Source: Chrysomallon squamiferum (lineage: Eukaryota > Animalia > Mollusca). From it: a DNA stretch of 64,000 nt. The position numbers and the translations under genes are program-made. The stretch spans positions 2,604,001 to 2,668,000 of the forward strand of contig CM022676.1 in the NCBI GenBank assembly GCA_012295275.1. Reading direction: 5' to 3'. This document shows positions 6,264 to 63,274 of the stretch, in pieces. How positions within the stretch are numbered: the first letter of the stretch is position 1; each line of letters opens with the position of its first letter. Below the pieces are notes generated by a model. The model saw nothing but the letters and a program-made list of their open reading frames with translations, ran no database searches and was not told the origin of the DNA.

Positions 6264-6322
6264 TTACAACAAATCAAAGTACTGAATTAGATGCTGTTCT
6301 AGTTTTGCATCGTTCTCAGCAT
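6264..6322 (-). CDS. Candidate terminal exon of gene B (DAENDAKLEQHLIQYFDLL*)
   Basis: ttcag| acceptor, phase-1 compatible with the ITAM exon, ends TAA, conserved in copy 2. Assignment speculative. Confidence 0.3.
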
Positions 6323-6383
6323 CTGAAATCGCCATTGGTTATTCATAGCTTCTAGTCTGGGAAAATTTCGAAAATATTCCACA

Positions 6384-6446
6384 CTACCAATCCAGACTGT
6401 ATCTGACAATCACGATAGAAACAAGAAAGTATCCAAACAGCGCCAT
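6384..6446 (-). pseudogene. Orphan paralogue of gene A leader exon (MALFGYFLVSIVIVRYSLD)
   Basis: Clear similarity to 3240-3294 and its upstream flank; lacks the phase-1 donor. Confidence 0.6.
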
Positions 6447-6978
6447 TTTGTTTGTTCTGACTAAACTTGGTTTTTTTTTAAACGATTTTGTACTCTGTCT
6501 ATGTCATCTGCAACTCTCTCTATTACTACAGGTCTCTCTCTCTGTCTCTCACTGATATTTTCAGATGTGTCCGAAAAATTTCATTTTAGTAATTTTAGAT
6601 GTTGAATCGGTTATACAGTATTTTCATATATATTCACTAGAAAGAAATAAATAATAAATAAATAAATAAATAAAAAGGACAAAAACGATCTGGGATAAAA
6701 AAGAATTGAAATAACTACAGAGACTCTGGAAGCCATGATTTCTAACACGTTTCAAAAATATGATTATTATTATTATTATTATTATTATTATTATTATTAT
6801 TATTATTATTGGCATACAAAACTCCTCATAACGAATAAGGAATAAAAACATTTCAGATTATCTTTACAAATACACATTTTATTTCAAGATAGTAATAAGT
6901 TATTATCAGTTCTCATCGTAGTTGGATAAATTTTAATATGATAAATAAAAGTGAATAATTCTAAATAAATGTTATTAC

Positions 6979-7077
6979 CTGAACTCGATGTGTTATCAGA
7001 CACCCGAAGCTTTTCATACGCAGGTGCATCACGTGATTGTAAACACTCGTACTGAGTTGTAGGTATTTGACCATGTT
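6979..7077 (-). CDS. Gene B cytoplasmic exon with ITAM (EHGQIPTTQYECLQSRDAPAYEKLRVSDNTSSS)
   Basis: tag| and |GTAATA, 99 nt, phase 1-1, open; YxxL-x7-YxxL. Confidence 0.8.
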
Positions 7078-7574
7078 CTATAAATTTATTAATATTTTCA
7101 TAAACACATTTTGATAAACTATTTTTCCGTTATATTTTCTAGAAAATATTAATTAAAGAAATCGTTACCGGAATTTGAAAAAAATATTAGGCGCTTATTT
7201 TTAATTCATTTAATTTACTGCAGCTTCTTTGAGTTTATAACATATATTATATAAAACATACATAATAATGTTCTTTCAGTCTTTGTCGAAATTACTTATT
7301 AATTGTTCAAACTCTTCACGAAGTGAATAAAATATGTGACTGTATGTAACTGTCTGCCTCTTTCTGTGTGTGGGTTTATGCATAAGGTTTGTTAATATGT
7401 ATGAAAAATTGGCATCTGATTTTGAATTTCCGCAATCATCTTGATTAATACTTCAAGATCTATTTCAGTTTGAATCGCTTTATGTATTAAAGAGACAGCT
7501 TCTTTGCAAAGGAAATTGCTCTAGTAAAACTAGGATCTAAAAAAGATACTCAAAACACTGGATTTCTATTTTAC

Positions 7575-7624
7575 CTGAACGAACAGCTGTTTCCTGGACT
7601 AAATCCATTGATACATCTTGATAT
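7575..7624 (-). CDS. Gene B cytoplasmic exon (YQDVSMDLVQETAVRS)
   Basis: cacag| and |GTAAAA, 50 nt, phase 2-1, fits both neighbours. Confidence 0.7.
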
Positions 7625-7945
7625 CTGTGAAACATAATAAGAAAAATATACTGGTATCTCATTCAAGTATATTTGGTTTTACTTGAATTGCTGCAACGAG
7701 ACAATCGCATATTTTGCAGAGGTATTTATGTTAATAGAGCAATGTAAATATTTTATTAGAGGTTAATATATTTTCAATCCTGATACAATTTTGCAGCAAA
7801 ATTTACTTTAAACATAAATATTATAGTTATGCACTTTGGGCATACTAGTGTCTATTTCGAACAAGGTCTGCAGGTACTTTAGTAAATAGATACTGAATAT
7901 CTCTTATCACAGTAGTTATCAGAAATATTTCAACACACTACTCAC

Positions 7946-7979
7946 GTATGTGTTTCATTTTCATTTTTGCTGTCTGAAC
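7946..7979 (-). CDS. Gene B juxtamembrane mini-exon (SDSKNENETH)
   Basis: tacag| and |GTGAGT, 34 nt, phase 1-2. Confidence 0.7.
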
Positions 7980-8295
7980 CTGTAACATATATGCACAGTT
8001 GTATTTTACAAGCTAAATAATAATTCTTACATTGAAATAATTGGATTTGATTTTCATTTTTAAACAACCAATGAAAAAAGAAAGAAACAATAATAAAAAT
8101 AAATAAATGCACGCACACGCACACACACCCACATACATATATATAGTTAAAGAGACAGAAAAAATATTAAAAATAAAAAGTAAGAAAGAAAGATAATTTT
8201 AAAATAAATAATTAAAAACTACAATAAAATAAATACGAAATATTCAAAACAGTAAAACAATATCTAATGAATGAGTCTAAAATTTAACTGACTAC

Positions 8296-60353: not shown

Positions 60354-60405
60354 GCACGCACACACACACACACACACACACACACACATATATATATATA
60401 TATAT
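60354..60405. repeat. (CA)n(TA)n microsatellite
   Basis: Directly visible. Confidence 0.95.
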
Positions 60406-61773
60406 AAATAAAGTTTAAATTAATAAAATTATAGAAATTTTAAAAAGCTAGCGTGTGTATGTGAAAAATACACTCTTTAAGTCATATTATTTTCATACAT
60501 TTATTCAAATATATTTGTTTAGAATATATTGCAAGATATATAATGTCAATAAAAACAATAAAAATGTACAAAACTTAGATGGGTTTATAAATGTATAGAC
60601 AATTAATTTGAATGTATTGTATAATTATTTTTTAAATTTTGTCTTTCTTTATTTATATTTTATTGTCATGTTTTGTGTAATTTATATCTGATGGAATAAA
60701 CTAAAAAAGTTCAGTATAAACAATATAACTTTATTTCAGTGAAAATGTGTTCTATGTGTTTATGTTAAATATTGTACATGCTTTATTTTTAACTTTATAT
60801 TTTGCCATTTCAATTAATATAAATGATCTTTTTAGTAAATTTAAAAAAAAAAATAATTCTGTTTTGCTCAAGTAAGTATTCATCAATATAAAATTCAGTA
60901 AATATTATTGTAAAATAACCTAATTTGCAAAATATCTCATTTGTGCAAATTATTAGGAATCTTTAATGAAAATAAATTCCAATCATGGATTTAATGTTTA
61001 CTGTGAACAAATTTTGTCTTTGGAATATTGGGTCTCCATCAAAAGTCGCAAGTAGAATAATATTAAAACAGGAGCATCCAACAGTAAATCAAGATGAAAA
61101 AAAAACAACAAAAAATACCCCAAACTTATAATGAAAATTAGAGACTGTGTAAAGTCAGCATTTTTTCTTTCATAATGCTTTTTATGTGTTAGCAACTTAT
61201 GATATAACAGGGTCTTCATGCACTTGATCTAATTTCAGACCTAAATCTAAAGGAGAGGATTGGGGTTTTGCTCACTTGATCTAATTTTTAAGACTTTTTA
61301 ACTACCCATGGAGAGAGAGAGACAAACTTATGTTTGCTATTTTTGGCATTTGTTTTGACAAAAATCTAACTTATATGTGTAATATTTCCTAAAATATTAA
61401 TTTGATGCAAGAAATACTTGGTCAGTTAGACATTTTTTGTTTGTTTCTTTGAACAAATTATTATATAGAGTTTTTCATTTTAACGTGATGAACCTAAAAG
61501 TGTATATTGTTTGTGATAATTGTAAAAGTATCCTGAATAAGATTTCATTGAAGTCTGTTTTATTTATTTAATTTACATACGTTTTTACATACATACATAT
61601 TATTTTTTGATGATCGCGACACTGACAAAACAAAACAAAACAATAATAACATTTTGAAATTAAAAGAGGAAACAACAATATTTGAAGTTTAAACTAATAA
61701 AATTAACCATAAAACATTAAGTTATTCTATCTGTACTGTACTAATGTGCATATTATTTATATTTGTTTTGTAG

Positions 61774-61808
61774 GCAGACAAATAGTAATGCAGAATGTGT
61801 ATTGCCAG
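61774..61808 (+). CDS. Gene E cytoplasmic mini-exon (QTNSNAECVLP)
   Basis: tgtag| and |GTAATC, 35 nt, phase 2-1. Confidence 0.6.
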
Positions 61809-62045
61809 GTAATCCCACAGTTCAATTTTGTTTAAACTGACATTGGCAAAATATATGTAGAATTAATTACCCATGAAAAAATATAATTATTAAAATATTA
61901 AGTAGTTGTGAAGTCATCATCTGAAGATTAAACTGACGTCATCTAAAAAAGAAAAACAATCTTTTTAACTGAATTGGATTTATGATAAACTTGTGAAATG
62001 AAAATGGAACATATTTATTGCTTAAATAACTGATTCATCTTTTAG

Positions 62046-62105
62046 TTCTAGAAGAGTTGTACTACATGAATCGTGATGACAGATTACAGAATCAAGTATT
62101 GCCAG
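62046..62105 (+). CDS. Gene E cytoplasmic mini-exon (LEELYYMNRDDRLQNQVLP), GC donor
   Basis: tttag| and CAG|GCGAGT, 60 nt, phase 1-1. Confidence 0.6.
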
Positions 62106-62427
62106 GCGAGTACCATAAAATCATATGAAATTAGACTGAAATAACCAACTTGCACATGATACAGAGTTTATTCCAACAGAAATAAACATTTGTCTTAAAA
62201 TCTGTGCTTATTATTAATAACATAAATTTATTTGAAGAAGAAAGGAAATAAGATAAAACCGTTTCTTCAACAGCTGAACAATACTGGAAATTTTCACATT
62301 GCAATAGCTATTATTCTTTCTATTGCAGAAATAATATTTTATAAACTGTTAAATTTAATAGATATTTGTGGTAAAAAATTAAAACAAATAATTATTTAAT
62401 TAAATTATTTTCTTGTTTTTGTTTCAG

Positions 62428-62487
62428 TGTTGGAGGATAATGATTTGTATTTCAAATCTGATGACAAAAAGAAACTCAGATTGCCAG
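62428..62487 (+). CDS. Gene E cytoplasmic mini-exon (LEDNDLYFKSDDKKKLRLP)
   Basis: Long pyrimidine tract + cag|, |GTTTGT, 60 nt, phase 1-1. Confidence 0.7.
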
Positions 62488-63139
62488 GTTTGTATTACAT
62501 CATGTTTAAAAAGAGACAAAGAGGGAAAAAAAGTAATAATATTAATAATAAAATAATTTACAGATAACTGATCTCTTCAGAATATAAGTTTCAGTAATAT
62601 GTTGCTGTTTTTTGTTGTTGTTTTTTGATGTTTTTTTAGTTTAAAAAAATTAAAGACAGATTTATTCTGGCAGCATTTAATAATATGGAAATGAAAATTA
62701 TTTTCTTATTCTGTATACAATTTTTCAATCATTACAATTAATAGTTCATTACTTAATTAATTTACTTTTAACCACATTCATATTAAAACTGTGTTGTACC
62801 AATTTTTCATTACATACAACTGCTGATAATGAACATGATACGTGTTCTTTTCATTGCTAAAAAAGAGTAAATTATAATATCTTTACCCATCCATTTATCC
62901 ATCATCTGTGAATTCTGTCTGTTATCTTTTTGAGTCTAATTTTGCCATAGTCTATGTATTATTTTTGCGAAATGTTAATAATAATAATAATAAAGAATTG
63001 GCTTGTAAGAATTCTTAGTTTTTAGAAATGATAAATTCATAATACATTTACACAAACATACCAGTGTCTGGTGTTGCTAACATTTTCATATTTATTAAAA
63101 TGATATCTACTGTAATTTAATATGCTGTCATTGTTATAG

Positions 63140-63274
63140 CAGGAAATGATTCCAGACAAGTTGATCCTAAACCAAGCACAAGTTCTGGAGTGACAGCTGA
63201 GAATACTGAAAGTCAATATTCTGTTGTAAAGACAACAAAGACTGGTCAGTCTACAAGTAATCAGAGTAAAGAAG
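63140..63274 (+). CDS. Gene E cytoplasmic exon with ITIM-consensus SQYSVV
   Basis: tatag| and |GTAAAA, 135 nt, phase 1-1, open. Confidence 0.72.

Follow-up and report, generated by a model that had tools for sequence, protein, structure and literature searches.

We analysed a stretch of 64,000 nucleotides from the gastropod Chrysomallon squamiferum (assembly GCA_012295275.1, contig CM022676.1, positions 2,604,001 to 2,668,000, forward strand), called the window below, in which genes for proteins with immunoglobulin-like (Ig) and fibronectin type III (FN3) domains are clustered. Our preferred reading, to which we assign a probability of roughly 0.6, is that the window holds dead or truncated copies from a gastropod cluster of immune-type receptors with Ig or Ig and FN3 domains, which would work in the manner of the oyster receptor CgIgR and whose members would have exchanged exons. 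A sequence-only reading of the same DNA had taken two of the genes, B and E, for an activating and an inhibitory receptor that read a variable membrane protein, C, and had proposed an undescribed immune or allorecognition complex. B, C, a further gene F and a relic D are present twice, while E, on the plus strand, lies outside the duplication and a gene A to the left of it. Self-BLAST placed copy 1 at 5698..26218 (A' relic, B1, F1, C1, D1) and copy 2 at 32532..52981 (A' relic, B2, F2, C2, D2), with an identity of 95.5-95.8% including gaps and 468 substitutions over 20195 aligned bases. This tandem duplication, together with the broken or truncated copies and the relics, confirms the birth-and-death debris that had been described.

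The exons of B were located by their splice sites and encode two Ig domains, an FN3 domain, a transmembrane segment and a tail spread over four exons. In B1 (minus strand) the first preserved Ig exon spans 9825..10109 (lower bound approximate) and contains an in-frame stop as well as a 4-nt deletion that it has in common with B2. It is followed by the second Ig exon at 9227..9474 (Pfam Ig_3, E-value 2e-8; 5' end disturbed relative to B2), the FN3 exon at 8689..8976 (Pfam fn3, E-value 1.3e-5; lower bound approximate), the transmembrane exon at 8293..8421 (hydropathy 3.1, bounded by splice sites) and the tail exons at 7946-7979, 7575-7624, 6979-7077 and 6611-6636. The third tail exon carries an ITAM (immunoreceptor tyrosine-based activation motif) at 7051-7007, and the last one a terminal YEN motif and the stop. 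B2 (33447..36922, minus strand) starts with the first Ig exon from 36922, which has the common 4-nt deletion, an additional base at 36827 and an in-frame stop. The remaining domain exons of B2 are found at about 36051-36298 (Ig), about 35540-35828 (FN3) and 35145-35273 (transmembrane), and the tail exons at 34798-34831 (acceptor lost), 34427-34476, 33832-33930 and from 33472, the last being out of frame. The ITAM reads YECL-x7-YEKL in both copies (33904-33860 in B2). For the B1 tail of 77 residues with five tyrosines, the ITAM pattern arose in about 5 per 1000 of 100000 shuffles (P=0.005). The sequence-only description of B as an Ig-Ig-FN3-transmembrane receptor with an ITAM is thus borne out.

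Its statement that B is damaged as assembled was also correct. Beyond the shared deletion the lesions differ between B1 and B2 and comprise stops, the additional base, the lost acceptor and the shifted last exon. For B, neither a signal exon nor an upstream Ig exon was found within the window. RNA contigs were available from two runs, X8 and X9, both of one study, and DNA contigs from the runs X1 and X2. They were placed on B2 at 85% likeness, and the joints described for B2 are among 15 of the 35 obtained. The joint 35828/36051, which connects the second Ig exon to the FN3 exon, has CT..AC ends and occurred in both RNA runs. The joint 33930/34427, connecting a tail exon to the ITAM exon, has the same ends and was seen in two X9 contigs, with a similar joint in X8. 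In one X8 contig a joint 35273/36051, again with CT..AC ends, leads from the second Ig exon straight to the transmembrane exon, such that the FN3 exon is skipped. None of these three joints was among those listed for the DNA run X2. A YENI motif upstream of the ITAM was rejected as a tail motif since it is intronic, the RNA acceptor being at 33930. The RNA contigs lack the additional base at 36827, supply the four deleted bases at loose ends at 36756/36759, and continue to an upstream exon that is absent from the window; the only RNA change listed within the ITAM (33860) is synonymous. B is therefore a dead copy of an expressed relative and, because both copies share the 4-base deletion and its frameshift, it was likely dead before it was duplicated.

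Damage of this kind could also be an artefact, if two haplotypes had been assembled in tandem, the lesions were consensus errors and the genes were in truth intact single copies. The substitution divergence of 2.3% could be heterozygosity, a satellite lies at the junction, and several of the lesions are missing from public RNA and DNA contigs. Consensus errors would, however, have to produce the same 4-nt deletion in both B copies in addition to different further lesions in each, and whole exons are missing. Among the contigs listed, the depth of X2 in the duplicated region was 17-60 in 5 of 7 pieces and 7 in the other two, compared with 11-14 on the E tail, and around E the DNA contigs from both X1 and X2 agree with the window almost base for base. 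We regard an assembly artefact as very improbable.

All close named protein relatives of the window genes come from Gigantopelta aegis. A search with the Ig and FN3 domains of E returned five matches (P0001-P0005) among 169 candidates, with 54-62% identity, and the first Ig exon of B is 40-59% identical to residues 320-416 of P0005 (XP_041378983.1, 'hemicentin-1-like'). B and E both map to this one protein, though to different parts of it (B to residues 320-505, E to residues 618-816), and P0005, P0004 ('NCAM L1-like'), P0045 and P0046 belong to the same family as B and E. P0004 and P0005 have open frames, with about seven Ig domains in P0005, whereas B1, B2 and E in the window are damaged. 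When B and E were compared directly, their FN3 domains matched over 26 residues at an E-value of 0.049 and their Ig domains gave short local matches only. P0004 and P0005 combine an E-like ectodomain and transmembrane exon with B-like ITAM tails of similar wording, whereas the tail of E in the window and the FN3 domain of B differ from theirs. This combination is the best clue to a shuffling of ectodomain and tail exon blocks, and it hints that such shuffling may have occurred in the family. The depth of DNA contigs points the same way and to a multi-copy family: summed X2 depth was 135 on the Ig-FN3 bin of E and 13-18 on the bins of its distal tail, and exon bins generally reached several times the depth of that tail, although, as the tool itself warns, depth summed across bins cannot be read as a copy number, and it would miss paralogous tail exons that are short or diverged.

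In E the Ig and FN3 domains are encoded by a single exon (56002..56644, plus strand) with a frameshift near 56393. Only the 3' half of the transmembrane exon is left (56652..56750), fused to the FN3 donor, while the intron and the 5' half of the exon are missing. Tail exons were located at 57240-57267, (58331-58352), 61774-61808, 62046-62105, 62428-62487 and 63143-63274. Read via 57240, 61774, 62046, 62428 and 63143 they keep the reading frame as far as SQYSVV (63211-63228), which is the single match to the consensus of an ITIM (immunoreceptor tyrosine-based inhibitory motif) in a tail of 122 residues with seven tyrosines. Such a match is at chance level, occurring in 28% of shuffles (P=0.28; P=0.22 for the alternative exon choice). 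None of the three homologue tails (P0004, P0005, P0047) has a similar ITIM, the sole pattern match, in P0004, overlapping an ITAM, and our searches found no homologue carrying an E-type tail. From the claim of a divergently oriented Ig-FN3 receptor with an inhibitory tail, the orientation, the domains and the consensus match remain; the word inhibitory is not supported, and a family profile found no signal or upstream Ig exon of E within the window. A degenerate Ig exon upstream (55600-55890) was rejected, as the family profile did not match it and the X1 and X2 DNA contigs skip 55252-55850. E faces D and C head to head; its distance to B2 is about 19 kb.

Across the frameshift of E the RNA contigs are 4 bases shorter, at about 95% identity, and the letters of the transmembrane exon that are absent from the window appear in loose ends at 56644 and 56652. 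A joint at 62102/62425, corresponding to the splice from 62105 to 62428, was present in X8 and X9 and in neither X1 nor X2; for E and C the joints given are 15 of 215. After the allowed 3-base shift the intron at 62105/62106 (plus strand) is of the GC-AG type in the RNA joints of both runs. A unit with an (N/E)xLY motif at its centre recurs in the E tail.

C is encoded on the minus strand and consists of a signal exon, an IgV exon and an anchor exon, located in C1 (21318..23537) at 23483-23537, 22104-22505 and 21318-21440, and in C2 (48092..50310) at 50256-50310, 48878-49279 and 48092-48214. The reading frame is open in both copies, over 192 residues in C1, and the anchor it includes is hydrophobic and has no tail. 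While the Pfam V-set match of the IgV exon (E-value 5e-5) is below the Pfam cut-off, AlphaFold2 predicts a nine-strand V-type sandwich with a B-F disulfide and strands C' and C'' (predicted local distance difference test score 94.5, 21-row alignment). The nearest solved folds are VHH domains (template modelling score 0.58-0.68), and the residues C22 and C110 are almost invariant in the alignment. The domain presumably resembles the IgSF domains of FREP and VIgL lectins, which are joined to a fibrinogen or lectin domain; the C model comprises IgV and anchor, and no lectin-like exon was noticed among the long reading frames, for which no dedicated lectin scan was made. With the C2 IgV as query a word-based search gave no match among 27 candidates and HMMER gave 34, from which P0008, P0012, P0014 and P0015 were dropped as generic or unrelated on reading. 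The 'uncharacterized' G. aegis proteins P0006 and P0009-P0011 have the same type of IgV (P0009 and P0011 align with it at 34-36%). P0009-P0011 carry a second Ig-type domain, whereas C in the window has none. IgV RNA contigs of both runs, about 91% identical to C and with a third variant of segment 30-40, run into an exon that resembles the beginning of P0009's second domain rather than into the C anchor exon. This second Ig-type exon was not found in the window, and no splice of the C IgV exon to the C anchor or to F was among the joints given.

The IgV exons of C1 and C2 differ in 16 of 133 residues and in 23 of 402 bases, compared with 445 of 19793 bases elsewhere in the duplicate (Fisher P=7e-5). 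The residue differences are clustered, with 12 of 16 in two stretches of 16 residues (P=0.002). Likewise, 12 of the 16 lie on strands C, C', F and G or in the FG loop, which make up 46 of the 133 residues (P=5.5e-4, segments picked post hoc), while strands A, B, D and E have none. V-set receptors usually bind through the sheet formed by C, C', F and G. The variable IgV membrane protein of the sequence-only reading is supported in its signal, V-type fold, anchor, two copies and RNA variants; its role as a ligand is not, as we found nothing that ties C to either receptor gene.

Relic D has in copy 1 (25115..26147, minus strand) an anchor exon like that of C (25115-25212) and a small exon (26113-26147), and in copy 2 an anchor exon at 51886-51983; a D Ig exon was not found within the window. 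In the anchor exons of C and D the stop codons (21323 and 48097; 25119 and 51890; minus strand) overlap good splice donors (GTAAGT/GTAAAT), and tailed forms are therefore possible. The first intron of C (23009-23202) and its upstream region (24622-24810) form an inverted duplication of 82%, and a second copy of the C signal exon, lacking a donor, is located near 23255-23351. Both copies of a Ser/Thr-rich, stalk-like mini-exon (18947-18979 and 45623-45655, minus strand, read in phase 1) carry an identical in-frame stop.

We can now weigh the proposal that B and E form an activating/inhibitory pair that reads C, in an immune or allorecognition context. ITAM and ITIM-consensus tails do occur in one cluster, and Hydractinia Alr genes mix such tails and include pseudogenes (PMC9546547, as far as accessible). 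B and E stem from one family, in which E-type ectodomains sit on ITAM tails in G. aegis, and the E ectodomain bin appears multi-copy with a distal tail near single copy. Also, as in the LILR, SIRP and CD200R systems, there is an ITAM member (spliced in RNA, broken in the window) within a cluster that shows gene birth and death. In paired receptors, however, the ectodomains of the activating and the inhibitory member are described as highly similar (PMC9291319, available portion), and the lack of a significant whole-domain match between B and E therefore sets them apart from such pairs, although other paralogues might yet form one. The ITIM evidence is at chance level, and the IgV RNA contigs use a second Ig-type exon in place of the C anchor. 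No fusion or rejection reaction is known in solitary snails, which further counts against the proposal. Overall we consider the pair proposal improbable; the terms paired, inhibitory, ligand and allorecognition are not supported.

Between C and B lies a gene absent from the sequence-only reading, F, which in both copies has five exons in one open frame with three transmembrane segments, juxtamembrane segments rich in Cys and a tail rich in Lys; the model begins at the first transmembrane exon. F1 (13005..15273, minus strand) has its transmembrane exons at 15172-15273, 14788-14883 and 14185-14286, a linker at 13403-13436 and the Lys-rich last exon at 13005-13088, and F2 (39677..41957, minus strand) is the second copy. 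The two differ by four nonsynonymous and no synonymous changes. RNA contigs span the last exon of F2 and the downstream DNA, and a loose end at 39781 keeps to the frame of F. At 45947 a candidate signal-like exon for F was discarded, since copy 1, RNA run X8 and DNA run X1 have a 4-base deletion there. Single exons of F had no Pfam match, which at 31-33 residues is a weak test; a likeness to MS4A/CD20 or CD47 that had been considered thus gained no Pfam support. A direct splice from the C IgV exon to F would be frame-compatible, yet was unseen among the joints given. If used, it would yield an unusual protein with an IgV domain and three transmembrane segments.

A non-immune origin of the cluster has to be weighed against an immune one. 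The genes could be adhesion or surface-coat proteins (nephrin/SYG-2/Sidestep-like) that expanded in a lineage-specific manner, with endocytic or cytoskeletal tyrosine motifs and a neutral conversion patch in C. The homologues bear adhesion-type names, and matches of the family in the PDB are generic Ig or general adhesion proteins, the best one for P0005 being carcinoembryonic antigen (CEA). These names (hemicentin-1-like, syg-2-like, NCAM-L1-like, CD22-like) are, however, all automatic and differ within one family. Orthology to conserved adhesion molecules, together with expression confined to a non-immune context, had been named by the sequence-only reading as a reason to abandon it; we found no clear orthology to any one such molecule, matches outside the gastropods having at most 30% identity. 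Immune receptors are the better fit for the repeated canonical ITAMs, the high turnover and the pseudogenes. An adhesion or coat function is unlikely in our view, but it retains a real chance.

Several observations weigh against the immune-receptor reading that we prefer. In the C IgV exon nonsynonymous differences per site (pN 0.059) about equal synonymous ones (pS 0.054; ratio about 1.1 on 23 differences), which does not demonstrate positive selection on C, and 6.5% of equally sized windows of the duplicate are as divergent. A gene-conversion patch therefore accounts for C as well as selection does, and agrees with the adhesion alternative. In the family as a whole, too, it is the front sheet that varies more. 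Tails of only three homologues were available. Both RNA runs are from one study and consist of contigs, which give neither level nor tissue, do not assign transcripts to a locus and do not separate alleles from paralogues, including an intact E allele from an E paralogue. The sequence-only reading had suggested that functional members may lie outside the window; spliced relatives of B, C and E in the two RNA runs lack several window lesions and extend into exons that the window misses. A full-length intact family member of this species was not seen among them.

With these reservations, the cluster of immune-type receptors may be pictured as follows. By analogy with CgIgR, intact B-type members would bind non-self surfaces via several Ig domains, and their YxxL-x7-YxxL tails would become phosphorylated and then recruit Syk. 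Recombination of exon blocks would place one type of ectodomain on different tails, as for the E-type ectodomain on an ITAM tail in G. aegis and on another tyrosine-rich tail in the window. C-type IgV domains may diversify on the C/C'/F/G sheet and would more probably be recognition modules than ligands for either of the two receptor types. In their assembled form, B1, B2 and E would be non-functional copies or null alleles that arose by unequal crossing-over. The window itself holds mostly dead copies, and it would point to an expanded, rapidly turning over gastropod family of Ig-FN3 receptors with ITAMs, which is held in databases under the names of adhesion proteins. A more far-reaching version, which we hold to be rather unlikely, is a gastropod paired-receptor family in which swapping of tail exons equips a single Ig-FN3 ectodomain type with ITAM tails in some paralogues and with an ITIM-bearing tail in others, and which, clustered with IgV proteins diversified on their front face and a three-transmembrane partner, discriminates cells or bacterial symbionts. 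If tail swapping did yield real activating/inhibitory pairs, snails would provide a testable case of independent paired-receptor evolution.

The remaining window is AT-rich animal DNA (GC content 28%) with numerous microsatellites. A degenerate satellite of 6.3 kb (26265..32531, units of about 100-116 bp) separates the two copies; it is strand-skewed, has an inverted block near 26690-27030 and sits exactly at the duplication junction, occupying the place where upstream exons of relic D would be expected. Gene A (1512..3294, minus strand) points to the left end of the window and has a signal exon (3240-3294) and an Ig-like exon (1512-1829) without a Pfam match, its Ig assignment being our own reading. 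Relics of the A signal exon begin at 6446 and 33279. A reading frame at 28-369 (minus strand) had no Pfam match; we take it to resemble an endonuclease fragment of a long interspersed nuclear element. High-copy repeats with very high DNA depth lie at about 58500-59200 and 63700-64000, in and behind the tail introns of E, and the one from about 58500 presumably starts like the end of a DNA transposon.

Compared with known systems, the layout of Ig, FN3-like and transmembrane segments with a tyrosine-motif tail recalls the Alr cluster of Hydractinia, for which ITAM and ITIM tails and many pseudogenes have been described (PMC9546547). Genetically mapped allorecognition with a rejection phenotype, extreme allelic polymorphism and allele-specific homophilic binding are features of Hydractinia; no Alr protein was among the named homology matches, and no direct comparison with Alr was run. 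In gastropods, the accessible parts of the reports describe polymorphic transmembrane clusters without known domains (PTC2) in Biomphalaria (PMC7494358) and an expanded CEACAM5-like family in G. aegis (PMC7895826). Within the open-licence PubMed Central (PMC) and bioRxiv literature we found no description of ITAM/ITIM Ig-FN3 clusters in gastropods, and the functional mollusc examples there are from oysters. Contrary to the sequence-only reading, the kind of gene has nevertheless been described. Pearl oysters have clustered Ig-FN3-transmembrane genes, as the window does, reported to lie in non-syntenic, haplotype-variable regions with variable Ig number (PMC9646362). The oyster protein CgNCAM1, reported with three Ig domains, one FN3 domain, a transmembrane segment and two ITIMs, is inhibitory via SHIP2 (PMC11841013). 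This is the layout proposed for E, and layout is the basis of the likeness; CgNCAM1 has two ITIMs and functional data, whereas E has one chance-level match. CgIgIT and IgIT2 of the oyster would, by their titles, be grouped with CgNCAM1. A further oyster counterpart is CgIgR, whose accessible description gives five Ig domains, a transmembrane segment and an ITAM ending in YEKL, and which binds bacteria and recruits Syk (PMC6994640). B differs from it by an FN3 domain, none being mentioned in that description. By layout and motif, the combination of multiple Ig domains, one transmembrane segment and a cytoplasmic ITAM is found in CgIgR, in B, where the motif likewise ends in YEKL, and in P0004 and P0005.

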